Assembly (NCBI GenBank): GCA_963841385.1
Contig: CAWJCO010000005.1
Coordinates: forward strand, 419,434-483,433
Length of the DNA: 64,000 bases
Reading direction: 5' to 3'
Source: an uncultured Chloroflexia bacterium
GTDB taxonomy: Bacteria > Chloroflexota > Dormibacteria > Aeolococcales > Aeolococcaceae
In this document: positions 7,201 to 62,344 of the stretch, piece after piece
Position numbering within the stretch: the stretch's first letter is position 1
How the letters are laid out: the number at the start of each line of letters is the position of its first letter
Made by a program: the position numbers and the translations under genes
The notes under the pieces: model-generated
What the model saw: only the letters and a program-made list of their open reading frames with translations
What the model was told of the DNA's origin: nothing
The model's database searches: none

Positions 7201-7203
7201 GGC

Positions 7204-14964: not shown

Positions 14965-14970
14965 TACCAT
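14965..14970 (+). promoter_or_regulatory. Candidate -10 element TACCAT, 7 nt upstream of the MarR GTG (leaderless arrangement)
   Basis: Reads taccat-taacctc-GTG with no Shine-Dalgarno sequence. Same hexamer as the divergent promoter candidate. Confidence 0.35.
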
Positions 14971-14977
14971 TAACCTC

Positions 14978-15460: not shown

Positions 15461-15473
15461 GGACGGCCGCACC

Positions 15474-16466: not shown

Positions 16467-16468
16467 CC

Positions 16469-17572
16469 GTGTCCGGTCCCGGCCCGCCACCGCCGCGTCG
16501 CGGCCGGCGCTCCGTTCCTGCGGAGGGCCCCGAGCCCACCCCGGCCCCGGCTGAGGGCCCTGCCCGGCCGCGACGTTTCCGGGCCACCCAGTTCATCCCC
16601 ATCGCGGTGGGGCTGGGCGCGGTCGTGGCCCTCATCGTGGTCTGCAACCCGTTTGCGCTGGGAGGGGCCATCGCCCGATTCGACCTGCTGCTGATCCCGG
16701 CGATCCTCGCCCTCTCCGCCGCCTACTACGTCCTCCAGGGGCTGCGCTGGTACTTCCTGCTCCGCGACGTCGGCGCCCGCATCGGCATCGGCGACAGCAT
16801 CCTCCTCAACATCGCCGGGCAGTCGACGACCATGCTCCCACTCGGCGAGCTGACCCGGGCGGTGTTCGCCAGCGAGGCGTGCGGCGATGTCGAGTTCGGC
16901 GAGGTGGTGGCCACGGTGACCGTGCAGGAGCTGATCTTCACGCTCATCCTCATCCTCATCGCCGTCCCTGGGGTGCTCTCCATCCACCGCGCCCTGCCGG
17001 TGCTGATCGTCGCCCTGGTGGGCATCGCCGGCGTCTTGGTTCTGCTCCTGGTGCCGGCCTGCTTCCATTTCGTCCACCATCTTGTCGAGCGCACCCCGGT
17101 CTTACGCCGCTTCACCGGCCAGGTCGACCGCCTCCGCCAGGAGACGGTGGTGCTGCTCCAGCGCCCCGATACCTTGGGCTGGTCCTTTCTCAGCCTGGCC
17201 GGGGCGGGGGTGTCGGTCACCCTCTTCTGGCTGGTCGTCTGCGGCCTGGGCGGTGACCTGAGCTGGCCGGTCACCTCGTTCGTCCTGGCGGCGTCCTACG
17301 TCGCCGGGGCGGTGAGCCTGATCCCGGGAGGGATCGGCGCCGCCGAGGCGAGCGTGGTCGGGCTCCTGGTCGTGGTCGGCGTCGACCCGGCGACGGCGAC
17401 CGCCGCCGCACTCCTCCAGCGGGTCGCCGACAAGGGCTTCGCCACCCTGATGGGATTCATCGCCTACGCCATCGCCCGGCGCCGCTTCCGGCTCAGCGGT
17501 CTGACCGCGCTCCGCCCCGGCCCCCCCGAGCAACCGGGGACCGCGACGACCATGGAGCCGGCCGGTGCCTGA
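16469..17572 (+). CDS. UPF0104 / LPG-synthase-TM 'flippase-like' polytopic membrane protein (HpnL-like), copy 2
   Basis: GTG start 3 nt after the copy-1 stop. Parallel motifs YYVLQGLRWYFLLRDVGARI, LLNIAGQSTTMLPLGELTRAVF, VSLIPGGIGAAEASVVGLL. Pro/Arg-rich N-terminal extension. Confidence 0.7.
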   Translation: MSGPGPPPPRRGRRSVPAEGPEPTPAPAEGPARPRRFRATQFIPIAVGLGAVVALIVVCNPFALGGAIARFDLLLIPAILALSAAYYVLQGLRWYFLLRDVGARIGIGDSILLNIAGQSTTMLPLGELTRAVFASEACGDVEFGEVVATVTVQELIFTLILILIAVPGVLSIHRALPVLIVALVGIAGVLVLLLVPACFHFVHHLVERTPVLRRFTGQVDRLRQETVVLLQRPDTLGWSFLSLAGAGVSVTLFWLVVCGLGGDLSWPVTSFVLAASYVAGAVSLIPGGIGAAEASVVGLLVVVGVDPATATAAALLQRVADKGFATLMGFIAYAIARRRFRLSGLTALRPGPPEQPGTATTMEPAGA

Positions 17573-31768: not shown

Positions 31769-33284
31769 CGAAGATGACCGCAAAGCCGTCGTCGTAGACC
31801 CGCTGCCACCCGGGGTCGACCGAGAGCGCCATGCTGAGCGCCGAGTCGGTGCGCTCCACCACGTAGTCGACGCCGTGCTCGCTGAGGATGGTCTGCCAGT
31901 CGGGCTCGGCGTTCTCGACGTCGCTGACCTGCTGGAGCAGCGGGTTGCCCACCTCGGTCGCCTCACCGTAGATGAAGACGCGGCGGTTGGCGTCCCCGTA
32001 GAAGCGGTAGATCAGATAGCCGCCCCAGTCGTAGGCGTTGAACATCCGGGTCCCCACCGTTTTGTGCGCCGCCAGCCAGTCCGCCGCTCCCACCGGGAAG
32101 TTGGCGGCGGTGCTCGCCGTCTGGGTGCTCAGGGTGTTGGCTGCAAACCCGACGGCGGCCACGGTGACGATGAGAGCGCCCGCCGAGACGATGATGAGCA
32201 GGTCGCCGGCCCGGCGGGCCACCCACGCCGCGCAGCGGTCCCGCCACCGGCTCCGCTCCCAGGCGCTCCCGACGGACCACGCCACCATGGGCATCAGCAG
32301 CGCGGCCGCGATCGGCGCGTTGCGCACCGCCGACAGCGCCGCGTAGACGCCGACCACGGTCAGCAGCGCATCCCACAGCCGGGGCCGGCGGAGCGCCATC
32401 GCCGCCACCACCAGCAGCAGCATCAGCTCGACGCCCAGCTCCCCGGCGACGTGGAAGTTCGGCGACTGCCATTCGGCGATGAAGCTCTGTTGCACGCGGC
32501 TGGTCTGCACCAGGATCGCGGCCAGGTAGGCGTGGATCGTGATCGGGTTGACGAGGCCGGCCACCCCGCCAGCGAGCAGGACCAGCCAGAGGCGGAGCGC
32601 CCGGCGGCGGTGGGCGCCGTCCTGCGGGGAGAGGAGCCAGAGCGCGGTCTCGGTGACCGCGGCGAGCCCGAGCACGGCCAGGCCGTAGACGAAACCGCCG
32701 TGGAGATTGGTCCAGAACACCATCACCAGGGGCATCAGGTAGACGATGCGGCTGCGGTCCCGGAGGTAGGCCTCGACCCAGCAGAGGGTCAGGCAGGTCA
32801 GGGCAAAGCTGATCATCTGCGACCGCGGGCCCCAGACCTCGACGCCGGCGAGCGCCGCCACCACCAGACAGGCGGCCGCGATCAGGGCGGGGACGCGCTC
32901 CATGCCGATCCGGCGCCAGATGAACCAGAACCCGACCCAGGTCACGGCCGTGTAGACGAGGCTGAAGGCGAGGAAGCCGCCGGCCCGGAAGATCAGATCC
33001 CCGAGCACCTCACTGCCCCACTCCTGGTCCGCCCAGGCGTTGCCGCTCACCGTGTAGGTGTAGAGCTCGTGGCTGGGCAGGCTGCCGTGATCGATGATCC
33101 AGCTCCCCGTCTCCATGTGCCACCAGAAGTCGGGGTCGCCGACCCGGCGGCAGATGACCACCAGGATCGCGACCAGCGCCGCGCCCACCACCAGGCCTCC
33201 GAGGGTGGGACGGCGAGGGCCGGCGCGAGCCCGGGGGGCAGCGGAGGGCGGAGAATGCTCCGGCGCGACGGCCACGGGTGGCAC
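31758..33284 (-). CDS. Polytopic membrane protein, GT-C-like glycosyltransferase candidate with C-terminal extracytoplasmic domain
   Basis: The last roughly 508 codons of ORF 31758..34367 contain more than 10 TM segments starting LGGLVVGAALVAILVV, then DPDFWWHMETGSWI... and WTNLHGGFVYG. The soluble C-terminal domain reads FNAYDWGGYLIYRFY...GVDYVV. GTG start at 33284 (or 33275). Confidence 0.6.
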   Translation of the reverse strand: MPPVAVAPEHSPPSAAPRARAGPRRPTLGGLVVGAALVAILVVICRRVGDPDFWWHMETGSWIIDHGSLPSHELYTYTVSGNAWADQEWGSEVLGDLIFRAGGFLAFSLVYTAVTWVGFWFIWRRIGMERVPALIAAACLVVAALAGVEVWGPRSQMISFALTCLTLCWVEAYLRDRSRIVYLMPLVMVFWTNLHGGFVYGLAVLGLAAVTETALWLLSPQDGAHRRRALRLWLVLLAGGVAGLVNPITIHAYLAAILVQTSRVQQSFIAEWQSPNFHVAGELGVELMLLLVVAAMALRRPRLWDALLTVVGVYAALSAVRNAPIAAALLMPMVAWSVGSAWERSRWRDRCAAWVARRAGDLLIIVSAGALIVTVAAVGFAANTLSTQTASTAANFPVGAADWLAAHKTVGTRMFNAYDWGGYLIYRFYGDANRRVFIYGEATEVGNPLLQQVSDVENAEPDWQTILSEHGVDYVVERTDSALSMALSVDPGWQRVYDDGFAVIFVKR

Positions 33285-33407: not shown

Positions 33408-35000
33408 ATGGCTGCGGCGGCGGGGGGCCGACCAGGAGGGGCGGCCCATCTCCGGCTCGGCCTCCGGCTGCGACGCGGGTCCTGGCTGACCGGGCCGATC
33501 GCGCTCTTCGCGCTGCTGCGGATCCCGTCGTTCCTCGAGCCGCACTGGTACACCGACGAGGCGGGCTACGTCACCACCGCGCGCTCCCTCCTCGAGGGCA
33601 AGGTCCTCTACAGCCAGGTCTGGAACAACAAGCCGCCCATCCACCTCTGGACGGTGGCGGTGGTGATCCAGCTCTTCGGGACCGGTGAGGCCGCCCTTCA
33701 CACCATCACCTTCGTCACCGGGCTGCTGACCCTGCTGGCCGTCGCCTACCTGGGCGACCGCCTCCTCGGGCGTCGCCGGACCGTGGTCGCCCTGCTCGTG
33801 GTCGCGGTGCTGCTCGGGACGCCGCTCGTCGACGCCGAGCTGCTCATCCCCGAGAGCCTCCTCATTGCGCCAGTGGCCTGGGCGGGGGCGATCCTGCTGA
33901 CCCGGGTCACGGTGCCCGACCGCCGCCGCTGGCCACTCTGGCCGATCGGGGTGGGGGCATTGGCGGCGCTCGCGATCGGCTACCAGCAGACGGCGCTGGC
34001 GGAGACCTGCGCCTTCGGCCTGATCCTGGCGATCGTGGGGCGGGCGACCTGGCGGCGAGTGACGGTGTACGCGGGCACGGTGGTCGCCATCACCGCCGCC
34101 TGGCTGATCCCCGCCATCGTCACCGCCGGGGCCGGGAAGGTCGCCTATGCCCTGGTCGGCTTCTGGATCCCCTTCACCGAGTACCGCTACTCGGGTGACG
34201 CCGCGGGCCACACGCTGCTCCACCTGCTCCTCCCCGCCGGCGTGCTTGCCCTGCTCGTGGTCGGGGCCTGGCTCTGCCGGCGGGACCGCGACCTGCGCTG
34301 GGGGCTCTGGGTCTGGGCGGGGGCCGCCCTGCTGGTCCCCGCGCTGGCGAGGCAGCCGTGGGCTCATTGGCTGGTGCCGTCGATCGCCCCGGCGGTGCTG
34401 GCTCTGAGCGGCCTCCCGCTCCGCTCACCGGTGGGCGCCGCCCGCCTGCGCCGGCTGGCCGGAGCCGGGCTCGTCGCCGCCACCCTGCTGGCCGCTGCGG
34501 GGGCGTCCGGGGCCGGCCTGGACTGGGTCGACATCATCGACGGGAGCAGCCACAACCTCCTCTACTACTACGGCGGCGCCGCCTCGTTGCTGACCGGCGC
34601 GAGGTCGCTGGAGGCCTACCAGGACCAGTTCGACTATCGCTTCCCCGAGGACGCCGCGGTCTCGGCATGGTTGACCGCGCACGGCCTGGACGGCAGCTCG
34701 GCGGTGGTCTGGTCGGACGACGCGTGGCTCTACGACGACAACCAGCTCCAGCTCATGCTGCCGACGCCACCGATCTACAACGACGAGGCGCTGCTCGGCA
34801 ACTACGGGCCGGTGGCGCGCAGGGTCACCGAGCTGGACCCCGAGGTCGTGGTCACCGAGGGTGCGTCCCGGAAGTCCTATCCGGAGATCAACTCGGTGCT
34901 GACCGCGGGCTACCGGGAGGTCGACCAGTCGGGCACGGAGATCGTCTGGGTGCAGGACGGCATGGTCGCCGCGGTCCTGGCGTCCTCCGGCGCCGGCTGA
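33408..35000 (+). CDS. GT-C membrane glycosyltransferase (GT39/ArnT/PMT-like)
   Basis: N-terminus reads FLEPHWYTDEAGYVTTARSLLEGKVLYSQVWNNKPPIHLW (a D/E-containing first loop typical of ArnT/PMT-type GT-C). About 11 TM segments and a soluble C-terminal domain. Confidence 0.7.
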   Translation: MAAAAGGRPGGAAHLRLGLRLRRGSWLTGPIALFALLRIPSFLEPHWYTDEAGYVTTARSLLEGKVLYSQVWNNKPPIHLWTVAVVIQLFGTGEAALHTITFVTGLLTLLAVAYLGDRLLGRRRTVVALLVVAVLLGTPLVDAELLIPESLLIAPVAWAGAILLTRVTVPDRRRWPLWPIGVGALAALAIGYQQTALAETCAFGLILAIVGRATWRRVTVYAGTVVAITAAWLIPAIVTAGAGKVAYALVGFWIPFTEYRYSGDAAGHTLLHLLLPAGVLALLVVGAWLCRRDRDLRWGLWVWAGAALLVPALARQPWAHWLVPSIAPAVLALSGLPLRSPVGAARLRRLAGAGLVAATLLAAAGASGAGLDWVDIIDGSSHNLLYYYGGAASLLTGARSLEAYQDQFDYRFPEDAAVSAWLTAHGLDGSSAVVWSDDAWLYDDNQLQLMLPTPPIYNDEALLGNYGPVARRVTELDPEVVVTEGASRKSYPEINSVLTAGYREVDQSGTEIVWVQDGMVAAVLASSGAG

Positions 35001-35086: not shown

Positions 35087-36571
35087 GTGAGCAGAGAGGC
35101 GGCGGCCATAGCAGGGGCGGGCGGCGGCGCCGTGCTGCCCGGCGCGCCCCCGGCCCGATTCGACCTGGCCGTGGTCGACCGCCGCCTCCCCGGGATGATC
35201 GCGCCCCTCCGCCGCTGGGCGATCCCCCTCGGGGTGCTGGTCATCGCCGGGGCCGCCCTCTACGTCATGCGGTACGGGGCGGCCCGCTTCTCCTGGGCCG
35301 ATTTCCGCACCTTTTACCAGGCCGGGCTCGACGTCCGCGCCGGCCGGGACCCCTACCTCGGGGCGATCAGCTTCATCAACACCTACACCCCGGCCGGCAA
35401 CGGCTCGTACTGGACCACCCAGGCGTACGTGTACGCGCCCTTCTTCGCCTACCTGATGGTGCCGCTGACCCTCCTGCCCCATTACGGCGCGCTCACCACC
35501 TGGGACCTGCTCAACGTCGCATTCCTGGTCCTCTCCGTCTACGCGGCGCTTCGGGCCGCCGGACTGGTGCCCCGGCCCACCATGGTGGTTCTCCTGACCG
35601 CGGCAGCCGCGGTGACCCTGCCGGTCCACCGAGAGTGGGACCTGGGCCAGAGCGACCTGCTGGTCATGGCCCTGGTCTGCGCGGCCCTCTGGGCGCGGTC
35701 GGCGGGGCGGGGTGGGCTGGGCGGCCTCCTGCTCGGGGCGGGATGCGCCGTCAAGCCCGAGCTGCTCCTGCTCGCCGTCTTCCTGCTCTGGCGGCGCGAC
35801 TTCCGCTTCGGGCTCTCCGCCGCCGCCTCCGCGGTCGTCCTCGGGCTCGCCCCCTTCCTCCTCCTCGGCCAGCGGGCCTGGACCGACTTCTGGACCGCCT
35901 GGAGCTTCTGGTCGGACCAGTACCTCCCCTTCCTCCACAACGAGGCGCCCAAGGGGGTGCTGGCCCGCCTCTTCACGCTCAACCCGGCGGCCCGGCCGCT
36001 CGCCGTCGCCCCCTCGGTGGAGACCGTGCTCTGGATCGCGGTGGCCCTGATCGTCGTCGGGCTGACGGTTTCGGTGCTCTCCACCCGCCCGCTTCGGCGC
36101 GACAGCCTCTCGCTGCTCGAGGTGGGCCTGGCGATCGAGGCCATCATGCTGGTGAGCCCGCTCACCGAGCGCCCCTACTTCCTCTTCCTGCTGATCCCCC
36201 TCATCGGCCTCTTCTGCTGGTTCCGCGAAGCCGGGGTGGGGGACGTCTGGCTGCGCCGGGCGGCCGCCGTGGCGGTGTTGATCTGGGTGCTCCTGGCCGG
36301 CCCCGCCGAGCTCGCCGAGTACGTCCTCGACACCGGGGTGACCGTCCATGGGCAAGCGGCCCCGCTGTTCACGCTGCTCGCCCCGGTCTACCTCTGGGTG
36401 ACCGTCGCCGCCTTCGTTCTCCAGTTGCTGGTGGTCGCCCACGCGCGGGGGCTGTGCCTGCTCCCCGCCGTCGGCGAGACGGTGCGCGGGGCTCCGGGTC
36501 TGCTCCTGGCCTGGATCAGGGATGCGGGCTCGGCCCTCGGGGTGGGCCGGCGGAGCCGGGCGCCGGCCTGA
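35087..36571 (+). CDS. GT87-family (DUF2029) polyprenol-phosphate-sugar-dependent membrane glycosyltransferase
   Basis: Has WADFRTFYQAGLDVRAGRDPY...YVYAPFFAYLMVPL and GAGCAVKPELLLLAVFLLWRR, typical DUF2029/GT87 blocks. An alternative start is the ATG at 35195. Confidence 0.75.
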   Translation: MSREAAAIAGAGGGAVLPGAPPARFDLAVVDRRLPGMIAPLRRWAIPLGVLVIAGAALYVMRYGAARFSWADFRTFYQAGLDVRAGRDPYLGAISFINTYTPAGNGSYWTTQAYVYAPFFAYLMVPLTLLPHYGALTTWDLLNVAFLVLSVYAALRAAGLVPRPTMVVLLTAAAAVTLPVHREWDLGQSDLLVMALVCAALWARSAGRGGLGGLLLGAGCAVKPELLLLAVFLLWRRDFRFGLSAAASAVVLGLAPFLLLGQRAWTDFWTAWSFWSDQYLPFLHNEAPKGVLARLFTLNPAARPLAVAPSVETVLWIAVALIVVGLTVSVLSTRPLRRDSLSLLEVGLAIEAIMLVSPLTERPYFLFLLIPLIGLFCWFREAGVGDVWLRRAAAVAVLIWVLLAGPAELAEYVLDTGVTVHGQAAPLFTLLAPVYLWVTVAAFVLQLLVVAHARGLCLLPAVGETVRGAPGLLLAWIRDAGSALGVGRRSRAPA

Positions 36572-51155: not shown

Positions 51156-52409
51156 ATGGTCAAGGTCGGAGCTGCCATCCGGCGGGTGTTGGATCGATTT
51201 CTCGTGCGCGTCGTGGCCGGGGTGGTCGCGGCCGGCATCGTGGTGATGGGCCTGATCGTGGCGGCCCTCGCCGCGGTCACCTCCGGCAGCCAGCTGCCGG
51301 CCGCATCGGTGGGGCAGGTGCGCATCGCGGCCATCCTGCTCGGCATCGTCGGCGTGGTCGTGCTCGGCGTCGTCGCCGCGCTGGTCGCGCACCGGGAGAC
51401 CAGCCACATCTGGGCGCTCGGTCACCTGGCCCGCCGGGTTGCCGCTGGCGATGTCTCGGCCCGGGTGGTTCCGGGTGGTGCCGCCGAGCTGAAGGAGCTC
51501 GGCGAAGCCTCCAACCTGATGGTCGAGCGGCTCGGCGGCATGGTCGGACGGGTGAGGGAGGTGAGCGGTGAGCTGGCCGCCTCCGCCGCCCGTCTCTCCG
51601 ACGCCTCCACCCAACTGGTCTCCACCACGGCCGAGCAGACCTCGGCCGCCGTCGAGACGTCGGCGAGCATGGAGGAGCTGGCCCGCACCTCGGCCCACAT
51701 CGCCGAGACGGTGGAGCGGGTCGCCACCCAGGCCGCCGAGACCCGCGACAACCTGGATCGCGCCCACGAGCGCATCCTCACCTCGGGTGAGCGCACGGTC
51801 GCCCTCACCGACCGGGTCCGCGACATCGGCAGGATTCTCAACCTGATCAACGAGATCGCGGATCAGACCAATCTGCTCGCCCTCAACGCCGCGATCGAGG
51901 CGGCACGGGCCGGCGAGGCGGGTCGCGGCTTCGCCGTGGTGGCGGACGAGGTGCGTCGCCTCGCCGATCGCTCCAAGGCGCTGGCCGCCGACATCTCCAC
52001 CATCACCGAGAGCGCCGAGTCGGAGACCAGCGCGACCGTCCTCGCCATGGAGGAGGGCGCCGCCCAGCTCCAGATCGGGCTCGGACTCATGGAGCAGGTC
52101 GCCGAGGCCAGCTCGAACGTCCGGCTCGCCACCCAGCAGCAGCGCTCGGCGACGGAGCAGGTGGTCGAGGCGATGGAGCAGGTGAGCGTGGCCAGCCGTC
52201 AGGTGTCGGCCACCGCGCAGCAGATCGCGGTCGCGGCGGGGAGCCAGGCCGAGATGGCGGGCGATCTCCAGACCGTCGCCGCCGCGGGCCCCGAGCATCT
52301 GGCGGTGCCCGCGCCTCCCTCGCTCCCCGGCTTCGACCGGGCGCCCGGCCCGGACGGCGGCGACGCCGGCTCCCCCGATCCCCGACTGGCGTCGTTCGTC
52401 GCGGACTGA
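51156..52409 (+). CDS. Methyl-accepting chemotaxis protein (TM - HAMP - MA domain)
   Basis: Highly conserved hairpin signature [47 protein letters not shown]-like [17 protein letters not shown] at 51156 is preceded by GGAGG. Confidence 0.88.
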
Positions 52410-52497
52410 CCCGGCCTCGGCGCGATCGGCCCGGGGGATACCCGATGGGGACGCGATCGGCCGGGCCCCCCTGGGCTGACGGCCCGGGCCCGGCGCC

Positions 52498-53427
52498 TCA
52501 GCCCCGGCCGGCGGGTTCGCGACGCCCCGTGCGCGCGGCGTTCCGCCGGGGCAGTGAGCGCCGGATCCGGAGGCGGAAGAGGAACAGCTCCTTGATCGCC
52601 CGGGCGATCGCCCGGGGGCGCGCGCCGGAGCGCCGCCCGGCCACCCGGGGGTGGTGGGGGACGGCGACCTGGGCGATCCGCCAGCCCGCGTGGCGGGCCT
52701 TGTAGTACAGCTCGGCGTTGATCAGGGCGCTGCGCGCCTCCAGGGTCAGCGACTCCAGGACCTCGCGGCGCATCAGCTTGAGGGCGCAGTCGACGTCCCG
52801 GTAGGGGAGGCGGTAGAGGACCGCCACCAGGGTGTTGAAGACCCAGCTGACCACCTCGCGAGCCCGGGCGTCCTGCCGCTCCTGACGCCACCCGGCGGCG
52901 AGGTCGGCGCGGTCGAGGAGCGGGGCCAGGAGGGCCAGGTCGGCGATCTCGAACTGTCCGTCCGCGTCGGTGAAGGCGACGAAGTCGCCTCGCGCCGCCC
53001 GGAGACCGTCGCCCACGGTGATCCCGTAGCCGCTCTTCTGCTGGTGGCGGATGACGCGCAGATCGATCCCCAGCTCGCCGGCCAGGGCGGTGGCGAGCTC
53101 ACCGCTCCCGTCGGTGCTGCCATCGTCGACGATCACCAGGTCGAAGTGCTCGGCAAGGGCGGGGAGCACCTCGGCGGCGTGGGGGAGCAGCCAGCTCAGG
53201 TTCTCGGCCTCGTTGTGGACCGGGAGCACCAGGGTGAGGCCGCTGAGCGGCGGACGTCCGGGCCGGCCCGCCGCGTGCGCCGGCCCGGAACCGGGCCCTG
53301 CCGCGGACCTGGTCGAGGTGACGGACGTCGATTCCGACCCCTCCGGGGGCCCGCTCGCCTCCCGGCTAGGCACCGACGCCGGTGGGGGTCGCCGCCGCGG
53401 TCGCGCGTGCTCCCGCGTAGACCGCAC
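52498..53427 (-). CDS. GT2 glycosyltransferase of the polyprenol/dolichol-phosphate sugar synthase type (Dpm1/GtrB/ALG5-like)
   Basis: Has LVLPVHNEAENL, VIVDDGSTDGS, GYGITVGDGLRAARGDFVAFTDADGQF (DxD motif) and RDVDCALKLMRREV. The GTG start at 53427 overlaps sqdB by 62 nt, and no other in-frame start occurs before the catalytic core. Confidence 0.8.
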   Translation of the reverse strand: MRSTREHARPRRRPPPASVPSREASGPPEGSESTSVTSTRSAAGPGSGPAHAAGRPGRPPLSGLTLVLPVHNEAENLSWLLPHAAEVLPALAEHFDLVIVDDGSTDGSGELATALAGELGIDLRVIRHQQKSGYGITVGDGLRAARGDFVAFTDADGQFEIADLALLAPLLDRADLAAGWRQERQDARAREVVSWVFNTLVAVLYRLPYRDVDCALKLMRREVLESLTLEARSALINAELYYKARHAGWRIAQVAVPHHPRVAGRRSGARPRAIARAIKELFLFRLRIRRSLPRRNAARTGRREPAGRG

Positions 53428-54580
53428 CGCCCTTCCGCCAGTCGATGGTCGCCTCGATGGTCTCCCGCCTCACCCGGGAGATGTTGCCCTCGACGGTCTG
53501 GATGACGCTGTCGATCAGCGTGTCGCTCAGCGAGTGAGGCTCCAGGCCGAGGTCGAGGAGGAGCTGATGCTTGGCGTTGTAGTAGTGGTCCTCCTTCTCC
53601 CGGCGCGGGTTGGGCACGTGGTGGATGGTGGTGGGGAGGCCGTGGGCGGCGCGAGCATGCTCCACCTTCTGGGCCAGCTCGAGGACCGAGAACTGCTCGG
53701 TGAACTGGTTGAAGACCCGGTACTCCCCGGCGGCGGGCGGGTTGAGCGCCGCCAGCTCGATGCAGCGCACGGTGTCGCGGATGTCCAGGAAGCCGCGGGT
53801 CTGGCCGCCCTTGCCGTAGACGGTGAGCGGCTCCCCGACCGCGGCCTCGACGATGTAGCGGTTGAGCACCGTGCCCCAGATCCCGTCGTAGTCGAAGCGG
53901 GTGACGAGCTGGGGGTGCAGCGCCGTCTCGTCGGTGGTGGTCCCGTAGACCACCCCCTGGTTGAGGTCGGTGGCCCGCAGGTCCCAGATCCGGCAGGCGA
54001 AGTCGAGATTGTGACTGTCGTGGACCTTGGAGAGGTGATAGATCGACCCCGGCTGCTTCGGGTAGAGCATCCGGTCACGGCGGCCGTTGTGGTCGATCTC
54101 GATGAACCCCTCCTCGATGTCGATGTTGGGGGTCCCGTACTCACCCATGGTCCCGAGCTTGATGAGGTGGCAGCTCGGAGCCAGGTCGCGCACCGCGTAG
54201 AGGACGTTGAGGGTGCCCACCACGTTGTTGACCTGGGTCTCCACGCCGTGGCGCGGGCTGATCATCGAGTACGGTGCGGAGCGCTGCTCGGCGAAGTGCA
54301 CGATCGCGTCCGGGGCGGTGGTGCGGATCAGCCGCTCCACCGCGGCCGCGTCGCAGAGGTCGATCTGGTGCCACTCGACCTTCCGCCCGCTCTCGGCCTG
54401 CCAGCGGGCTAGGCGGTCCGCCACCGAGGCGATCGGCGTGAGGCTGTCGGTTCCGCACTCCTCATCCCAGCGCCGCCGCACCAGGTTGTCGACCCCAATG
54501 ACGTCGTGGCCGCGGGCGGAGAGGTGAAGGGCGGTAGGCCACCCCAGGTAGCCGTCGGCCCCGAGGACCGCGATGCGCAT
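53366..54580 (-). CDS. sqdB: UDP-sulfoquinovose synthase
   Basis: Long blocks nearly identical to cyanobacterial SqdB and plant SQD1 as I recall them: GADGYLGWPTALHLS, EQRSAPYSM, KLGTMGEYGTPNIDIEEGFIEI.HNGR, YPKQPGSIYHLSKVHDSHN, ATDLNQGVVYG, TVYGKGGQTRGFLDIRDTVRCIELA, VFNQFTEQFSV, HYYNAKH..LLDLGL.PH.LSD. Confidence 0.92.
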   Translation of the reverse strand: MRIAVLGADGYLGWPTALHLSARGHDVIGVDNLVRRRWDEECGTDSLTPIASVADRLARWQAESGRKVEWHQIDLCDAAAVERLIRTTAPDAIVHFAEQRSAPYSMISPRHGVETQVNNVVGTLNVLYAVRDLAPSCHLIKLGTMGEYGTPNIDIEEGFIEIDHNGRRDRMLYPKQPGSIYHLSKVHDSHNLDFACRIWDLRATDLNQGVVYGTTTDETALHPQLVTRFDYDGIWGTVLNRYIVEAAVGEPLTVYGKGGQTRGFLDIRDTVRCIELAALNPPAAGEYRVFNQFTEQFSVLELAQKVEHARAAHGLPTTIHHVPNPRREKEDHYYNAKHQLLLDLGLEPHSLSDTLIDSVIQTVEGNISRVRRETIEATIDWRKGGAVYAGARATAAATPTGVGA

Positions 54581-54637
54581 TGCTGTCTCCCCATGGTGGC
54601 CGGCCGGGCTGACCCCGTCCGGCATGATCCGTGCGAG

Positions 54638-55612
54638 CTAGGTTGCGAAGTGGCGATGGGTCCGGGCGAGACCCTCGGCCAGAGCAGTTTGAGGCTTCCA
54701 CCCCATCAACCGCTCGGCGCGGCCGGCGTCGAGGCAGGCGCGCGCGACCTCCCCGGCCCGGGCGGGCTGGTAGTCGGGGGCGACCTCCACCCCCGCGGCT
54801 CGGATCAAGCCCTCCACCACCTCACGGACGCTCGTCTCACGGCCGGTGCCGACGTTCAGCGGCCCATCGGCGGAGCTGAGCAGCGCCGCCCGGGTGGCCG
54901 CGGCCACGTCGGCCACGTAGACGAAGTCGCGGGTCTGGGAGCCGTCGCCGTAGATCACCGGGCGCAAGCCCTGGACCAGCCGGGTGGACGAGATCGCGAG
55001 CACCCCCGCCTCCCCGGTCCCGTCCTGACGCGGTCCGTAGACGTTGCCGTAGCGCAGGGCGACCGTGCGCACCCCCCGCGCGCGGTAGGTCCAGAGATAG
55101 GTCTCCTCGCAGAGCTTCTCGGCTCCGTAGGCGGATCGCGGCGCCGGGACCAGCTCCTCGGACGCCGGCAGGCGCTCGGCGTCGCCGTACACGGCCCCGC
55201 CCGATGAGGCGATCACGATGGCCTCGCAGCCTGCCCGGGCGGCCGCGTCGAAGCAGGCGACCGAGCTGGCCAGGACCCGCCGGACGTGATCCCCGGGATC
55301 GCGCAGGGCCCGGTTCACGCCGCCCTTGGCGGCGAGGTGGACCAGCGCCTGGGGACGGAAGCGGGCCAGGGCGCCGGCGGCCTCGGGCCCCCCGGCGTCG
55401 GCCTCGACCACCTCGACCGTCGACGGCAGCGCCACACCGCAGGGATGGGAGAGATCGTCGATGACGAGCACCGCGACCTGGTCCGCGGCGAGCAGCTCCA
55501 CCAGGTGGCTGCCGATGAAGCCAGCGCCCCCGACCACGGCGACCCGGGCGGGAGGAGCGCCGCTTCCCGCCCCGCCCCGTCCGCCCGCCGCGGCGTCCTC
55601 GGCGGCAGTCAC
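54638..55612 (-). CDS. NAD-dependent nucleotide-sugar epimerase (GalE-like extended SDR)
   Basis: Has VAVVGGAGFIGSHLVELL, SSGGAVYG, the catalytic pair SAYGAEK, RYGNVYGPRQ and GDGSQTRDFVYVADV. The GTG start forms a GTGA overlap with the upstream stop (55609-55612). Confidence 0.85.
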   Translation of the reverse strand: MTAAEDAAAGGRGGAGSGAPPARVAVVGGAGFIGSHLVELLAADQVAVLVIDDLSHPCGVALPSTVEVVEADAGGPEAAGALARFRPQALVHLAAKGGVNRALRDPGDHVRRVLASSVACFDAAARAGCEAIVIASSGGAVYGDAERLPASEELVPAPRSAYGAEKLCEETYLWTYRARGVRTVALRYGNVYGPRQDGTGEAGVLAISSTRLVQGLRPVIYGDGSQTRDFVYVADVAAATRAALLSSADGPLNVGTGRETSVREVVEGLIRAAGVEVAPDYQPARAGEVARACLDAGRAERLMGWKPQTALAEGLARTHRHFAT

Positions 55613-56718
55613 GGGTTCACCCGGATCGCCGGCTCGTCCGGGATCCGGGGCCGCCCCAGGAGCATGATCCCCACCGCCCCGGCGATGCCCAGGGGGAGGG
55701 TCATGGCGAGACGCACCAGGACCGTGACCGCCACCGCGTCCACCTTGCCGAGCCCGCCGGCAACCAGCAACGCCGCGGTGGTGACGTCGGCGGCACCGAT
55801 GCCGAAGGGAAGCGTCGACACGCTGCCGATCACCTGGGAGATGCAGTACGCGGCGATCGCGACCCCCAGGGAGACGCCGGCACCGACCCCCCAGACCAGC
55901 ACCAGCACCTGCAGGCCGCTGATCACGAAGATCAGCAGGCTGTAGAGAGCGAAGATCGCGCCGACCCGCCAGGCAAGCCCGAGCTCCTCGAGGCGCACCA
56001 GCGAGCGCAGGATGCCGGCCACCAGCCCGTGGCGCCCGGTGGGGAGGGAGACCCCGAAGTAGTGCCGCGTGGCCAGGCTCACCCACCACGGGCCGGCGAT
56101 GACCACCAGCCCTGCCACCGCCAGGCCGGCCGCCGCCAGCGCGGGAAGGTAGATCGCGGCGGCGAGGACCCCGCCGACCACTCCCAGCTGGATGATCGTG
56201 ACCAGGCGCTCGTAGACGACCGTCGCGACCCCCGCGCTGACCGGCACCCGGTCGTGGTTGCGCCACAGATAGGGGCGTGAGAGGTCGCCGCTCGCCGCCG
56301 GGGTCAGCCAGCTCAGGGTCTGCCCAGCGAGGTCCACCCAGTTCATCCGGACGAAGGGCACGGGGTGGCCGAGGCGCCGGAGCAGGATCTGGGACCGCCG
56401 GGCGCGGAGCAGGGTGGTGGCGAGGTTGAGGGCGATCGCCACCCCCACCAACCTCCAGGAGACGTGACCGGCCTTGCTGACCACCTGAGCCGGGTTGACC
56501 TTGCGGATCAGGCCGTAGATCACCGCGGCGCTGATCAGGAGGACGACCAGTTGGAGCCCGGCCAGCAGCAGCCGCCGTCGCATCGTGGCGTGATGCGGCC
56601 TGGCCGTCGACGCCACTCCGGTGGGCTCGGCGGGGGCGGGGCGCGGGATCATCAGGTCATCGGAGGGCGCGCCATCCAGCCCGCGCCAGACCGCGTCGGC
56701 CGCGGACTTCGCGGTCAA
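55609..56718 (-). CDS. UPF0104 / LPG-synthase-TM 'flippase-like' polytopic membrane protein, first gene of the sqdB operon
   Basis: About 8 TM segments. Has RRRLLLAGLQLVVLLISAAVIYGL, LRARRSQILLRRLG and VSTLPFGIGAADVTTAALLV, parallel to the two copies at 15474-17572. TTG start at 56718, with an alternative ATG at 56583. Confidence 0.7.
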   Translation of the reverse strand: MTAKSAADAVWRGLDGAPSDDLMIPRPAPAEPTGVASTARPHHATMRRRLLLAGLQLVVLLISAAVIYGLIRKVNPAQVVSKAGHVSWRLVGVAIALNLATTLLRARRSQILLRRLGHPVPFVRMNWVDLAGQTLSWLTPAASGDLSRPYLWRNHDRVPVSAGVATVVYERLVTIIQLGVVGGVLAAAIYLPALAAAGLAVAGLVVIAGPWWVSLATRHYFGVSLPTGRHGLVAGILRSLVRLEELGLAWRVGAIFALYSLLIFVISGLQVLVLVWGVGAGVSLGVAIAAYCISQVIGSVSTLPFGIGAADVTTAALLVAGGLGKVDAVAVTVLVRLAMTLPLGIAGAVGIMLLGRPRIPDEPAIRVNP

Positions 56719-56894
56719 GGAATCTCCCCATTCGTCCGTACTGAGACCGGCAAGATGCTGATCATCCGAACCTTACAAGAGCGTTACCACTCTCGGGCCG
56801 GAACGGACGTTTGCATGACCCGAGCCGCAGCGGTCGCGGCGGCGCACCCGCCGCCTCACCGACCCGAAAGGTTTCCCCGCCTAGGCTGGGCGCC

Positions 56895-57110
56895 ATGGCG
56901 GTGGTCCCGATCATCCTCCTGCTGGTCGCCGGTGCCGTGATCGCGGCCGGTCAGCTGACGGTCCAGACCGATCAGCTCGTGCCGGGCCTGCTGATGCTGG
57001 TCCCGCTGGTGGCCGGGCTCCTCCTGACCCGCCTGCGCTCGGCGTCCGGCCGGCTCACCGCGGTGCAGGCCGTCCCCGACGTCCCCCGACGGCTGCGGCG
57101 AGGTGTATGA
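56895..57110 (+). CDS. Possible small membrane protein (71 aa, 2 TM)
   Basis: MAVVPIILLLVAGAVIAAGQL ... LVPGLLMLVPLVAGLLLT. No family was recognised. Weak. Confidence 0.3.
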   Translation: MAVVPIILLLVAGAVIAAGQLTVQTDQLVPGLLMLVPLVAGLLLTRLRSASGRLTAVQAVPDVPRRLRRGV

Positions 57111-57120
57111 AAGCGAGTCG

Positions 57121-57300
57121 ATGAAGGGCAATCCCGTGATGGGCTTCCTGCACCGCTCCAGCAAGCCGCGCAAGCCGCGTCCCGGCGCCGGGCTGCGGCC
57201 GGTCTGCCCGATCTGCGAGCGGCCGATGGAGCGCCGTGGCTCCACGGTCTGGATGTGCCCCGACTTCCCCCGCTGCCCCGGGGCCATCGCCGCCGACTGA
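57121..57300 (+). CDS. Small C4 zinc-finger protein (topoisomerase-type zf-C4-like)
   Basis: CPICERPMERRGSTVWMCPDFPRCPG resembles the CPxCGxxM...C..YP.C topoisomerase DNA-binding zinc finger. The start may be 57121 or 57139. Confidence 0.5.
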   Translation: MKGNPVMGFLHRSSKPRKPRPGAGLRPVCPICERPMERRGSTVWMCPDFPRCPGAIAAD

Positions 57301-57382
57301 TCCGGCGTCGCGCTGGCCGTGGCCGCCTGACCTCGTCGGGCGCGCTCGCAACCTCGGCCGTCGGAGCATCCGGGACCGGCGA

Positions 57383-57835
57383 CTACCCTCGCGGTTCCCC
57401 GCCGGTCGCGGCGGCCGGGGGTAGCTCCGCGTCGCCCATCCGCTCCATCGCCCGTCGGGCCACCGCGGTGCCGGCGGCGGCCGCCGCGGTGGTGGCGGCG
57501 CGCAGCGCCACGCGCTGCCAGAGTGGTCCGTTCTCCTTGCGCCGCCGCCCCAGCTCCTTGCGGATCTCCTCGAGCTGGGCGGCCACGTCGTCGAGCGAGG
57601 TCACGACGGCCGGGGGGGCTTCCTGCCGGCGGCCCCGCGCGCGCAGGACCAGCACCGAGACCGTGACGGCGACGGCCACCGTCCCGATGACCGCGTAGCG
57701 GACGCCGTCCCGTCGGAGCCGCGCCCGCCAGTCGAGCTCCTCTCGGACCCGGGACTCGAGAGCGGAGACGTGAGCCGCAAGCGCCTGCTTGCTCAGCTCC
57801 CGTTCGCGTTCGGCTTCAGCAACTCCCTGACCCAC
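57383..57835 (-). CDS. DUF3618-like protein (coiled coil + one TM)
   Basis: GTG at 57835 is preceded by AAGGAGGA. Reads ELSKQALAAHVSALESRVREELDWRARLRRDGVRYAVIGTVAVAVTVSVLVL. It partners the upstream holin-like gene, as is common in actinobacteria. Confidence 0.55.
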   Translation of the reverse strand: MGQGVAEAERERELSKQALAAHVSALESRVREELDWRARLRRDGVRYAVIGTVAVAVTVSVLVLRARGRRQEAPPAVVTSLDDVAAQLEEIRKELGRRRKENGPLWQRVALRAATTAAAAAGTAVARRAMERMGDAELPPAAATGGEPRG

Positions 57836-58273: not shown

Positions 58274-58633
58274 TCATACCTTCAGGGCCGCGACGTCGAT
58301 GTCCTCGAGGCCCTCGGGCGGAGGGATCCCGTGCTCGTGCAGCGCCTTGAGCAGCACCAGGACGTAGCGGACCCCGGTGAGGTTGACCCCGTGCTGGCGG
58401 GTCAGGCTCTGAATGGTCTGGAGCTTGTAGATGTCGCGCTGGGAGAAGCGGCGGCGGTTCGTCGAGGTCCGCTGCGGCACCACCAGCCCCATGTTCTCGT
58501 ACATCATGAGGGTGCGCGGATGGGTCTCCAGGATCTCGGCCGCGACGCTGATGGTGTAGATCGGCTTGTCCAGGCCGGGTGAGCCGGGCAGCGCCCCGCC
58601 GCTGGGATCGCCCCTGCCTACTCCTTCAGCCAC
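58274..58633 (-). CDS. MerR-family transcriptional regulator, HspR-like (copy 1)
   Basis: Reads LDKPIYTISVAAEILETHPRTLMMYENMGLVVPQRTSTNRRRFSQRDIYKLQTIQSLTRQHGVNLTGVRYVL. The GTG at 58633 overlaps the receiver-gene stop by 16 nt. Confidence 0.75.
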   Translation of the reverse strand: MAEGVGRGDPSGGALPGSPGLDKPIYTISVAAEILETHPRTLMMYENMGLVVPQRTSTNRRRFSQRDIYKLQTIQSLTRQHGVNLTGVRYVLVLLKALHEHGIPPPEGLEDIDVAALKV

Positions 58634-59010
58634 TCGTTGATCCCCTCCGAGATCGCCAGAGGTGACGTCTGCGCCTTGACCAGGAACTCCAGCGCACCCA
58701 GCTTGAGGCCGCGATCCACCAGGTCCCTCTCGCCGAAGTTGCTCAGGATGATCACCGGGGTCTCGGCCGTGGGCCCGTGCCGTCGCAGCTCCTGGAGCAC
58801 CTCGAAACCGTCCTTCTTGGGCAGGCGAACGTCGAGGAAGACGATGTCGGGCAGGAGCTCCTTGGCCCGCTCCAGGCCTTCGACGCCATCGAGCGCCACG
58901 TGGACGCGGTAGCCGTCCAGCTCCAGCTTGGTCCGGTACATCTCCAGGGTGTCCCGGTCGTCCTCGATCAGGAGGACGTCGATCAACGCGTCCTCGTCCG
59001 CGTCCGCCAT
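58618..59010 (-). CDS. Single-domain response regulator (CheY-like receiver only)
   Basis: Has DVLLIEDD (acidic pocket), IVFLDVRLPKKDG (phospho-acceptor Asp), PVIILSNF and the ALEFLVK Lys. ATG at 59010 has a GGGAGGA RBS. Confidence 0.85.
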   Translation of the reverse strand: MADADEDALIDVLLIEDDRDTLEMYRTKLELDGYRVHVALDGVEGLERAKELLPDIVFLDVRLPKKDGFEVLQELRRHGPTAETPVIILSNFGERDLVDRGLKLGALEFLVKAQTSPLAISEGINEWLKE

Positions 59011-59208: not shown

Positions 59209-59556
59209 TCAGATGCGCACGTGGGCGATGTCGACGTCCGCCAGGAACTCCGGCCGCGGGATCCGGTGGGCGTCCAGGGTCTGGAGCAGCCGGATCACGT
59301 AGCGAGCCGCGTTGAGGTTGAGCCCGTGGGTCTTGGTCAACCGCTGGACGGCCTGGAGGGTGAGCAGGTCGCGCTGGCTGTAGCGACGCCGGTTGGTGGG
59401 GGTGCGGTGCGGGACCACCATGCCCAGGTGCTCGTACATGATCAGGGTCCGGGGGTGGACCGCGAGGATCTCCGCCGCGACGCTGATGGTGTAGATGGGC
59501 TTGTCGAGGCCGAGCCTCGCCGGCTCGGAGCTTGCGGCCTGTGTCACTGCGGCCAC
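59209..59556 (-). CDS. MerR-family transcriptional regulator, HspR-like (copy 2)
   Basis: Reads LDKPIYTISVAAEILAVHPRTLIMYEHLGMVVPHRTPTNRRRYSQRDLLTLQAVQRLTKTHGLNLNAARYVI. Several in-frame GTGs are available, and 59556 was chosen because it follows GGAGGTGA. Confidence 0.75.
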   Translation of the reverse strand: MAAVTQAASSEPARLGLDKPIYTISVAAEILAVHPRTLIMYEHLGMVVPHRTPTNRRRYSQRDLLTLQAVQRLTKTHGLNLNAARYVIRLLQTLDAHRIPRPEFLADVDIAHVRI

Positions 59557-59862
59557 CGTGGTCACCTCCACGCCAGGGGCGCCTGGCGGTCGCGGCCCGA
59601 GGGCCCGGCGCCCCGCGCCTCGCGCCCATCGAATGGTAGTCGCTGCCCCCCGGGAGGAGGGCATCCGCGGTCGGGGGCTCGCCCGCGGACCGGCCGAGGG
59701 ACCGGGCGCCGCATCGAGTGGGGCCCGGCTCGGTGAGAGCCCCCACCGGCGTGCCACCATTAGCGCCCGTGCTCTCCTCCCCTCCGCTGGCCCAGCCGCG
59801 GTCCGGCCTCCGGCCCCACCGAGCCGGCGTAACCCTCGTGCCCCCACTCCCGTTGACCCTCG

Positions 59863-60889: not shown

Positions 60890-62344
60890 TTAGCCGATCA
60901 GCTCGCGCAGGTCCTGGAGCTGATTCCCGATCCAGCGGGAGACGTCGTTGCTCCGGATCACCTCCTGCATCTTCTCCGCTCGGGCCGTCTTCTGGGGCTC
61001 GTCCATGACCAGGCCGAGCAGGAGCGCCTCGGCTGTCTCGTCCACGTCGAAGGGGTTGACGGTGAGGGCGAAGTCACCGATCTCCTCATGGGCGCCGGCG
61101 TTCTCGCTGAGGACCAGCACCCCGTGGCGCGTGTTGCAGAGGGGCCCCTCCTTGGCCACCAGGTTCATGCCGTCGTAGATCGGGTTGACGAGGAGCACGT
61201 CGAAGCACTTGTAGGCGGCGATCGCCTTGTACATGTTGTCCTCGACCTCGACCCGGATCGGCGTCCACCCGCCGCTCGAGAACCGCCGGTTGATCCGCGC
61301 CGCCACCGAGAGCACGCTGCCCAGGTAGGAGCGGTAGTCGCCGATGTCCTGGCGGCTGGGCTGCAGGAAGGCCCAGAACTGGACCCGGCGGTGGAGATCG
61401 GTGTTGGTCTCCAGCATCCTCTCGTAGGCGAGGAAGCCGCGCACGATGTTCTTGCTGAGGTCGGTGCGGTCCACGCGCAGGATCAGCCTCTCCGGCCGCC
61501 ACGAGGCGATCCGGCGCTCCTCGTCCAGCACCCTGGGGTCCTGCGCCTGCTCGGCGAAGCCGGGGATGTCGACGCTGATCGGATAGTGGCGCACCCACAC
61601 CGCCCTCCCCTGGTAGTACACGGTGCGCTCCCGGAAGTCGACGCCCAGACCGAGATTCTCCTCACAGGTGAGCAGGAAGTTGCGCACGTCACGGCTGGTC
61701 TGGAACCCGACGATGTCGTTGCCCAGCAGCCCGTGGACGATCTCATCCCGGATCGGCTTGGGCAGGATCTTCCAGTACTGGGGCGTGGGCCATGGGATGT
61801 GGACGAAGTGCTGTAGCTTCACCTCGGGCACCAGCTCGCGCACCATCCGCGCGACCAGGTACAGCTGGTAGTCCTGAATCAGCACCAGCGGTGGCCGGTC
61901 GCCCGCCGCCGCCTCGCGGGCCACGCGCTCGGCGAACATCCGGTTGACGGCGACGTACCCCTCGCGCCAGGCGTGACGGGTGGAGGCCCCCACCAGGGGC
62001 TCCCGGGCGAGATCCCAGAGGTAGTGCTGGATGAACCAGAGCAGCGGGTTGCTGATGACGTTGTAGTAGAGGTCGTACGCTTCCGGCGCGGGCTGGATGA
62101 AGGCGACCCGGTACTCGGCCCCGTCGGCGGTCCGGAGCTGGGCGGGATCGCCGCGTGCGGCGAGGTTCAGGTCCTGCTCGTCGCGAGCCGCCGCCACCCA
62201 GAGCGCCCCGGTCTCGGTTGCCAGGGACGAGAGCGCGGTGACCAGGCCGCCCGCACCCTTGACCAGCCTCTCGGGGCGTCCCAGCAGCGGGTCCGCCGGC
62301 TCCAGCGCCAGCGGAGCCCGGTTGGCGACGATGATCGGCCGCAC
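60890..62344 (-). CDS. otsA: Alpha,alpha-trehalose-phosphate synthase (GT20)
   Basis: Has IIVANRAP, GGLVTAL, YYNVISNPLLWFIQHY, LIQDYQLYLV, HIPWP, LRVDRTDLSKN and NPIYDGMNLVAKE. Confidence 0.92.
   Translation of the reverse strand: MRPIIVANRAPLALEPADPLLGRPERLVKGAGGLVTALSSLATETGALWVAAARDEQDLNLAARGDPAQLRTADGAEYRVAFIQPAPEAYDLYYNVISNPLLWFIQHYLWDLAREPLVGASTRHAWREGYVAVNRMFAERVAREAAAGDRPPLVLIQDYQLYLVARMVRELVPEVKLQHFVHIPWPTPQYWKILPKPIRDEIVHGLLGNDIVGFQTSRDVRNFLLTCEENLGLGVDFRERTVYYQGRAVWVRHYPISVDIPGFAEQAQDPRVLDEERRIASWRPERLILRVDRTDLSKNIVRGFLAYERMLETNTDLHRRVQFWAFLQPSRQDIGDYRSYLGSVLSVAARINRRFSSGGWTPIRVEVEDNMYKAIAAYKCFDVLLVNPIYDGMNLVAKEGPLCNTRHGVLVLSENAGAHEEIGDFALTVNPFDVDETAEALLLGLVMDEPQKTARAEKMQEVIRSNDVSRWIGNQLQDLRELIG

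Follow-up and report, generated by a model that had tools for sequence, protein, structure and literature searches.

In the 64,000-nucleotide stretch of DNA analysed here (hereafter the window; GC content ~72%), four tightly packed genes occupy positions 52498–56718 of the minus strand, in the order UPF0104, GalE, SqdB and GT2 (a family 2 glycosyltransferase). An earlier note, made from the letters of this DNA alone, had placed a flippase-like membrane protein, an epimerase, a UDP-sulfoquinovose synthase and a glycosyltransferase at these positions, and had interpreted them as a candidate pathway to lipid-linked sulfoquinovose (SQ). All four genes were present at the coordinates given, with matches to PF03706, the SDR epimerases, SqdB and PF00535 respectively.

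55609–56718, minus strand: UPF0104/MprF-flippase-like (PplT) membrane protein, PF03706 and TIGR00374, first gene of the operon
54638–55612, minus strand: short-type GalE-like UDP-hexose 4-epimerase, PF01370 with PDB matches
53366–54580, minus strand: SqdB, UDP-sulfoquinovose synthase, with a match to SQD1 (1QRR) and to NF041015
52498–53373 (alternative start 53427), minus strand: small soluble or monotopic GT2, predicted to be of the polyprenyl-phosphate glycosyltransferase type, PF00535

We examined the junctions between the genes. The GTG start of the GalE-like gene overlaps the UPF0104 stop codon as GTGA, exactly as the earlier note had described, and an alternative start of the GalE-like gene lies just ahead of the Rossmann strand. 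A GGGGAG ribosome-binding site precedes the sqdB ATG (54580) by 6 nt. For the GT2, the only possible starts are GTG 53373 and GTG 53427, the latter being the choice of the earlier note, and the GT2 overlaps sqdB from either of them. With GTG 53373, which corresponds to the public 291-residue call (P0001), the overlap with the sqdB stop is 8 nt long (GTGCCTAG). The overlap is real because start codons are absent between 53373 and the conserved first strand of the protein. Residues 1 to ~50–65 of the GT2 are a low-complexity extension that is missing from most homologues (~240 residues). A GT2 shortened to 243 residues, with a gap after sqdB, was tried and rejected, since it cuts the conserved first strand and a start codon is absent there. 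A scan of 52000–57400 for promoters and terminators, uninformative at 72% GC, found none.

The SqdB protein was compared with Arabidopsis SQD1 (1QRR); the alignment is gapless, spans 385 residues and shows 59% identity (E 8e-157). The catalytic residues Thr145, Tyr182, His183 and Lys186 are all retained, and the segments GTMGEYG and YHLSK are identical (chain positions 145 and 182–186). We take these four residues (SQD1 numbering) to have catalytic roles in SQD1, as was reportedly established by Mulichak et al. in 1999. The NCBIfam model NF041015 matched the window protein over its whole length (positions 1–384 of 384) with 487.4 bits, under the 575-bit equivalog cut-off, and the next-best NCBIfam family reached only 55 bits. 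By these matches we regard the protein as a bona fide SqdB/SQD1 orthologue, the identity that the earlier note had given it, with UDP-Glc plus sulfite to UDP-SQ as its predicted reaction.

The GT2 matched PF00535 with an E value of 5e-23, and its top NCBIfam matches were ArnC, PpgS, AglJ and a Dol-P-hexose transferase, together with a partial match to MftF. Comparison of the GT2 family profile with the PDB retrieved ArnC (E 2e-19), the Pyrococcus enzyme PfDPMS (4e-11) and GtrB (4e-10), and the best PDB matches, by sequence as well as by profile, were all polyprenyl-phosphate glycosyltransferases. In a Foldseek search with the AlphaFold model, ranks 1–12 were all ArnC, DPMS or GtrB, with TM values of 0.52–0.68; the model is moderate (pLDDT 68.5) with a disordered lid, and was used for fold-level matching only. 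Residue invariance was assessed over 82 GT2 sequences, and the roles of the corresponding residues in ArnC, DPMS and GtrB were taken from the literature (PMC12698845 and PMC12690121). The following residues were invariant.

D94-A-D96-G-Q98: DxD-Q motif, metal and UDP binding
R121, R124, R130 and S134: lipid-phosphate binding, corresponding to ArnC R128, R131, R137 and S141 and to GtrB R122, R125 and K132
D151: candidate catalytic base, corresponding to the Asp of the ArnC GDY motif and, by motif, to GtrB D157
R201: lid arginine, donor diphosphate binding, corresponding to ArnC R205 and PfDPMS R202

The catalytic base candidates named for GtrB are D157 or D94 (PMC12698845 / PMC12690121), and the HMMER alignment puts GtrB D157 two columns off D151 of the GT2. 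At its C-terminus the protein has one predicted amphipathic helix (residues 211–231) and then a basic tail. The full residue signature and the top fold matches (ArnC, DPMS and GtrB) assign the protein to the polyprenyl-phosphate glycosyltransferase type and agree with the Dpm1/GtrB-like label that the earlier note had attached to it.

The loop that forms a lid over the donor reads R205-E-F-G-[E/D]-S-K in ArnC and R-x-A-G-E-[A/S]-[S/T]-G in an sqdB-less outgroup from Thermomicrobiales. The same loop is R-x-x-G-R-R-S-G in most Dormibacteria and G-V-R-S-G in some. Relative to this outgroup, K71, R206 and R210 have likewise become fixed in the Dormibacteria clade, and the K71 segment, as read by eye, aligns with the ArnC stretch that holds N77, a UDP ligand. 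The switch from an acidic to a doubly basic lid over the sugar pocket would fit an anionic, sulfonated donor sugar, and is suggestive of one. No alignment column separates the GT2s of sqdB-linked loci from those of sqdB-less loci, and the R-to-V change in the lid is only partly correlated with the presence of sqdB. We propose the GT2 as a putative UDP-SQ:polyprenyl-phosphate sulfoquinovosyltransferase.

To place the operon among its relatives, one genome per species was scanned with the GT2 family alignment, which gave 80 loci, and individual look-ups of GT2 homologues added three. By tblastn, gene calling and clustering, 73 distinct Dormibacteria-type loci (the window counted) were analysed. 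The GT2 homologues nearest that of the window (96–99% identity) belong to metagenome-assembled genomes that bear the label Candidatus Dormibacteria or Dormibacterota, the Dormibacteria being an uncultured lineage of soil and peat. In 62 of the 73 loci sqdB lies no more than 200 nt from the GT2 gene, and the four-gene arrangement is not due to chance. The co-directional order UPF0104-GalE-SqdB-GT2 was found in 23 loci, essentially the window's own clade, and 39 loci have a convergent arrangement in which the GT2 faces SqdB, GalE and UPF0104. All four genes occur together in 49 of the 73. The earlier note had named the absence of any sqdB-GT2-UPF0104 linkage in related genomes as grounds for abandoning its interpretation; the linkage recurs, and is kept through an inversion. 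The divergence of GT2 from the window sequence follows that of SqdB (Spearman rho 0.90, n=57), and therefore both genes were inherited together. In a neighbour-joining tree the sqdB-linked state is spread over the whole Dormibacteria GT2 clade. The next outgroup consists of the Thermomicrobiales GT2s (L074–L083), with 43–48% identity and the canonical G-E-x-x lid, and none of sqdB, GalE, UPF0104 or GT-C was found near the GT2 in these loci. In several of them a VanW/PG_binding_4 protein is encoded upstream of the GT2.

In six loci sqdB is the sole nucleotide-sugar gene beside the GT2 and a GT-C membrane glycosyltransferase, with GalE and UPF0104 not nearby. In this group an FGGY-family sugar kinase lies on the far side of sqdB and divergently adjoins it, ~1.7 kb past the GT2 (L038, L040, L041, L044 and L046). 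The annotated neighbours of sqdB in the related loci are the GT2, GalE or the FGGY kinase. The constant core of the Dormibacteria-type loci is the pair of GT2 and GT-C, always with at least one UDP-sugar enzyme alongside. Five typical loci carry odd taxon labels (L016, L050, L064, L065 and L066, labelled Binatia, Angelobacter, Bacillota, Micrarchaeaceae archaeon or Acidoferrum), which are probably binning or labelling errors and not a real taxonomic spread.

The GT-C partner was clearest outside the co-directional clade: there, 46 of 50 loci have a large polytopic membrane gene of the GT-C or DUF2079 kind directly adjoining the GT2. With a limit of 300 nt, such adjacency was found in 47 of the 73 related loci. 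The partners are of three types.

PMT_2 type: ~396 residues, 11 loci, Pfam PMT_2 and PMT
PMT_2-like type: ~500–540 residues, 18 loci, weak PMT_2 match, homologous to the ~396-residue type (hhalign 86%)
DUF2079 type: ~500–525 residues, 18 loci, Pfam E 4e-66

In two loci a PMT_2-like gene and a DUF2079 gene occur together, directly upstream of the GT2. Beside the PMT_2-like GT-C, ten loci carry a gene for a ~700-residue protein with an N-terminal signal-like or transmembrane segment and no Pfam family (L002 at 4210–6348, L029, L030, L033, L038, L040, L041, L044, L046 and L050). This protein could be acceptor-related or glycan-processing, and no homologue of it was seen in the window.

In the window itself, the earlier note had pointed to three GT-C genes at a distance from the operon as possible terminal transferases. 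Two of the three were recognized as such, and the remaining one matched no family.

33408–35000, plus strand: PMT_2-type GT-C membrane glycosyltransferase, PF13231 with 38 bits against a 26-bit cut-off
35087–36571, plus strand: GT87-family GT-C, PF09594 E 2e-30, weak NCBIfam mannosyltransferase match
31758–33191, minus strand: multi-pass membrane protein with a C-terminal soluble domain, no family match

The gene at 33408–35000 is the sole match in the window to the ~500-residue PMT_2-like type that abuts the GT2 in 18 loci (38–52% identity), and its identity to the GT2-adjacent GT-Cs tracks the identity of the GT2s, as orthologues would. It is thus the homologue of one type of GT2-adjacent GT-C, and the best candidate for the extracytoplasmic transferase. 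In one relative (L042), UPF0104-GalE-SqdB-GT2 is followed by the first 134 residues of a homologue of 33408–35000, all co-directional, before the contig end cuts the GT-C; here the five genes appear to form one operon. The GT87-family gene lies 87 nt downstream of the PMT_2 gene in the same direction and is possibly part of the same envelope-glycan machinery. No counterpart of it was present beside the GT2 in related loci and no link to the GT2 was found. A terminal transferase role for a distal GT-C, as the earlier note had suggested, is supported at least for 33408–35000. For 31758–33191, neither Pfam (E up to 10) nor NCBIfam gave a family. In hhalign comparisons DUF2079, 31758–33191 and an unclassified L051 membrane protein showed no relation to the PMT_2-type GT-Cs, and only the two PMT_2 groups were related to one another (86% probability). 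The similar-sized neighbour of 31758–33191, at 30344–31768 on the plus strand, is a predicted membrane protein of ~475 residues, also without a Pfam or NCBIfam family.

The two upstream genes of the operon, UPF0104 and GalE-like, remain together in 49 of the 73 related loci. The GalE-like protein matched PF01370 with E 2e-46 and the galE model TIGR01179 with E 1e-41 (143 bits against a 262-bit cut-off), and its PDB matches 4ZRM, 7YS8 and 2P5U (E 3e-56 to 2e-52) are UDP-glucose 4-epimerases, those of Thermotoga and Thermus among them. Its proposed role is to keep UDP-Gal and UDP-Glc in balance for SqdB, with UDP-SQ as a possible alternative substrate. The UPF0104 protein matched PF03706 (LPG_synthase_TM) along the profile from position 2 to 302 of 302 (112 bits, E 5e-32) and the flippase-like model TIGR00374 with 57 bits against a cut-off of 43; no PDB sequence match was found for it. 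A small GtrA-family flippase was not matched among the window open reading frames scanned, and the UPF0104 protein is the operon's sole membrane protein. By analogy with MprF and AglD (PMC5898192; bioRxiv 10.1101/2022.03.11.483950), we propose it as the putative translocase of a lipid-linked sugar. UPF0104 domains occur widely, frequently as fusions with glycosyltransferases (bioRxiv 10.1101/2022.03.11.483950), and the precedent for one as a flippase of polyprenyl-P-sugars is a prediction, made for the C-terminal domain of archaeal AglD (PMC5898192).

Taken together, these results lead us to propose that the four genes and the GT-C 17.5 kb away form a module, shared across the Dormibacteria, that places SQ outside the cytoplasmic membrane by way of a lipid carrier. 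The GalE-like enzyme would balance UDP-Gal and UDP-Glc, and SqdB would convert UDP-Glc and sulfite into UDP-alpha-sulfoquinovose. The inverting GT2 would then move SQ onto polyprenyl phosphate at the inner face of the membrane, giving polyprenyl-P-beta-SQ, which the UPF0104 protein would carry to the outer leaflet. Finally, the GT-C would pass SQ to an envelope acceptor (a polysaccharide, lipoglycan or protein), probably in alpha linkage; its candidate here is the PMT_2 protein at 33408–35000, and in relatives the PMT_2 or DUF2079 protein adjoining the GT2. We lean slightly towards this chain being correct in full. That the GT-Cs use polyprenyl-P-SQ, or its 4-epimer, to sulfoquinovosylate a wall polymer, a lipoglycan or a surface protein seems to us about evenly balanced between true and false. 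The lipid-linked SQ interpretation of the earlier note is thus supported, the support coming from comparative genomics alone.

Several observations weigh against this proposal. In the 39 loci with sqdB and GT2 convergent there is, by that arrangement, no co-transcription of the two genes. In nine loci with long flanks (the L002, L029 and L047 types are examples) sqdB is absent within 8–10 kb, yet the GT2 and a GT-C are kept; the GT2 is convergent with GalE-UPF0104 in five of them, three have a UPF0104-GalE-GT2-GT-C operon, and one (L039) has the GT2 and GT-C only, so that eight of the nine retain GalE and UPF0104. Since the GT2s of these loci cannot be told by any column from those of sqdB-linked loci, the GT2 may be able to use a different UDP-hexose, or these genomes may have sqdB at some other place. 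The GT2 is without the C-terminal transmembrane helices present in ArnC, GtrB and PfDPMS, and the moderate AlphaFold model with its disordered lid counts on the same side. Human DPM1 and PpgS likewise have no transmembrane helices, and the NCBIfam model of PpgS is 226 positions long. The window GT-C at 33408–35000 stands 17.5 kb from the operon with housekeeping genes between, and DUF2079 was not tied to GT-C by profile comparison; we count it as a putative GT-C by its Pfam clan. To our knowledge, polyprenyl-P-SQ has never been reported, and our literature search found no paper on SQ linked to polyprenyl or undecaprenyl, none on SQ in Dormibacterota and none on DUF2079. Finally, GpgSDF and HexSDF, the bacterial UPF0104 systems for which there is experimental work, handle glycerolipid glycolipids made by a GT4, and the flippase activity of GpgF, the UPF0104 protein of the former, is itself unverified.

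The nine sqdB-less loci, the three UPF0104-GalE-GT2-GT-C operons among them and the missing residue difference between the two sets of GT2s would suit a system in which GT2, UPF0104 and GT-C carry an ordinary hexose (Glc, or Gal from the GalE-like enzyme) and SqdB feeds an unlinked synthase of sulfoquinovosyldiacylglycerol (SQDG) elsewhere in the genome. SQDG is also, so far as is known, the only established bacterial product of UDP-SQ. We nevertheless consider such a separation of the two activities unlikely, because the closeness of sqdB to the GT2 outlasts inversion, because in the six loci described above it is sqdB, not galE, that is the sole sugar-nucleotide gene by the GT2 and GT-C, and because the GT2 start overlaps the sqdB stop in the window clade. 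Nor does a canonical SQDG operon account for these loci: no GT4 or GT8 gene was found beside sqdB in the window or in the annotated related loci, and within the window none of the GC3-supported open reading frames carries a GT4 or GT8 domain, in line with what the earlier note had said of their absence.

The remaining alternatives keep SQ and alter its route or its form. The GT2 might put SQ straight on a membrane lipid (diacylglycerol, phosphatidylglycerol or a hopanoid), with UPF0104 flipping the sulfoglycolipid and the GT-Cs unrelated. The bacterial UPF0104 proteins studied to date do belong to glycerolipid systems (Lys-PG for MprF, GlcN-PG for GpgF), the window has a hopanoid cluster with two further UPF0104 genes and an HpnA-like epimerase, and the trio of epimerase, GT2 and UPF0104 resembles HpnA, HpnB and HpnL. 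However, the GT2 retains all the polyprenyl-phosphate-binding residues of ArnC, GtrB and DPMS, GpgS is a GT4 and not a GT2, and the near-universal adjacency of GT2 and GT-C would be left unexplained. Membership of the operon in the HpnA/HpnB/HpnL group was rejected on scores, the epimerase reaching 26.5 bits against the HpnA cut-off of 368 and the GT2 23.8 bits against the HpnB cut-off of 379. Direct transfer to a membrane lipid is thus improbable in our estimate. A last variant leaves the proposed pathway as it is and puts the GalE-like enzyme after SqdB, so that the loaded sugar would be the 4-epimer, 6-deoxy-6-sulfo-galactose. The GalE-like gene does lie directly between UPF0104 and sqdB in 49 loci, and its product falls under the GalE equivalog cut-off, so its substrate is therefore not fixed by homology. 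Its nearest solved relatives are nevertheless ordinary UDP-Glc 4-epimerases, six loci have sqdB, GT2 and GT-C with no GalE nearby, and we know of no such sugar or activity, so we give this variant little credence.

If the proposed lipid-linked route is correct, its interest lies in the place of the sugar in the sulfur cycle. SQ is a major organosulfur compound whose known biosynthetic fates are SQDG and a few archaeal N-glycans, and the route, present in a widespread soil phylum, would introduce a further class of molecules that contain SQ and, for sulfoglycolytic microbes, an unrecognised non-photosynthetic source of the sugar in soil. The lipid-phosphate SQ donor would be the first of its kind, as would bacterial SQ glycoconjugates other than sulfolipid, and the three-component glycosylation paradigm would reach a sulfonated sugar. 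The UPF0104 protein would be the first in bacteria to act on a polyprenyl-P-sugar, giving a very large family a concrete substrate. For the Dormibacteria, abundant in peat, permafrost and desert soils, the outcome would be a phosphorus-free anionic decoration of the envelope. We suggest that oligotrophic bacteria of phosphate-poor soils may in this way obtain a negatively charged envelope without phosphate, comparable with the use of teichuronic for teichoic acids.

The rest of the window was also surveyed. There are three UPF0104 genes in the 64 kb, two of which, tandem PF03706 paralogues, come after a MarR gene that follows a hopanoid biosynthesis cluster (the whole at 4182–17572).

4182–4850: PNP_UDP_1 (HpnG-like)
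4943–5920: HpnA-like epimerase, 320 bits
6094–7200: radical-SAM plus DUF3463 (HpnH-like)
7204–9210: squalene-hopene cyclase
9203–10492: amine oxidase (HpnE-like)
10678–12549: double SQS_PSY (HpnC/D fusion)
12546–13649: FMN_dh (IDI-2-like)
13698–14798: polyprenyl synthetase
15474–16466 and 16607–17572: the two UPF0104 paralogues

Upstream of the operon, two MerR paralogues (58274–58633 and 59209–59571, minus strand) flank a response-regulator receiver gene (58618–59010), an arrangement kept across the window clade. The only other cytoplasmic glycosyltransferase of the window is a GT20 trehalose-6-phosphate synthase-like protein (60890–62344, minus strand). Other conserved neighbours in the related loci (MCP, MerR, response regulator, holin-like, SUF, CtaG, VIT1, FGGY kinase and the ~700-residue, apparently secreted protein) were uninformative on the pathway.

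We compared the proposed module with the systems that it most resembles. With GtrA/GtrB/GtrC, CsbB-GtcA-YfhO, ArnC-ArnE/F-ArnT, PpgS-Rv3632-Rv3779 and the pentofuranose systems, which show that the three-component family is still expanding (PMC11127046), it has in common a cytoplasmic GT2 bearing the polyprenyl-phosphate signature, a translocase in the membrane and, in the relatives of the window, a GT-C beside the GT2; as in the arn operon, genes for the donor sugar are clustered with the GT2. The differences are that the proposed sugar is the sulfonated 6-deoxy-6-sulfoglucose, that the translocase candidate is UPF0104/MprF-like and not of the GtrA family or ArnE/F, that the GT2 has no transmembrane helices, unlike ArnC and GtrB, and that the GT-C partner differs from lineage to lineage, being of one of two PMT_2 types or DUF2079, and lies apart from the GT2 in the window. 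GpgSDF of Pseudomonas aeruginosa, which makes GlcN-PG, and HexSDF of Clostridioides difficile are likewise small operons of a glycosyltransferase, a sugar-modifying enzyme and a UPF0104 protein, the last being a putative flippase that exports a charged glycolipid. There, however, the glycerolipid is glycosylated by a GT4, a deacetylase serves as the modifying enzyme and no GT-C takes part, whereas the present module combines a predicted polyprenyl-phosphate GT2 with nucleotide-sugar enzymes before transfer and a proposed GT-C after it.

Haloferax AglD presumably works with AglS as its GT-C partner and on a dolichol carrier. The Haloferax volcanii protein itself is a Dol-P-hexose GT2 fused to a UPF0104 domain that is predicted to flip the lipid-linked sugar, and the archaeal neighbourhood of arCOG00897, arCOG00899 and arCOG00563 joins a Dpm1-like GT2, UPF0104 and a PMT/STT3-like protein, as we find here (PMC5898192). 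The AglD system is archaeal, its GT2 and UPF0104 parts are fused and its sugar is mannose or another hexose, whereas the present system is bacterial, has separate genes and includes sqdB. What is new is sulfoquinovose and the bacterial setting; the wiring of GT2, UPF0104 and a PMT-like protein had already been predicted in archaea (PMC5898192).

UDP-SQ is known to be used in making SQDG and, in archaea, N-glycans, for example those of Sulfolobus agl1-agl4 (PMC4388408). With the SQDG pathway (SqdB/SQD1 with the GT4 SqdX/SQD2 or the GT8 SqdD) the module shares an orthologous SqdB. The glycosyltransferase beside sqdB differs, being an inverting GT2 of the polyprenyl-phosphate class in place of a retaining GT4 or GT8, and its predicted acceptor is polyprenyl phosphate and not diacylglycerol. 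In Sulfolobus acidocaldarius agl1-agl4, as here, the UDP-SQ synthase (Agl3) shares its cluster with a membrane-associated glycosyltransferase; SQ becomes part of a surface glycoconjugate there, as is predicted here, and not of a sulfolipid. In that archaeon the growing lipid-linked glycan is thought to receive SQ straight from UDP-SQ on the cytoplasmic side (PMC4388408), whereas in the bacterial module proposed here a lipid-phosphate monosaccharide is predicted to serve as the donor for a GT-C.

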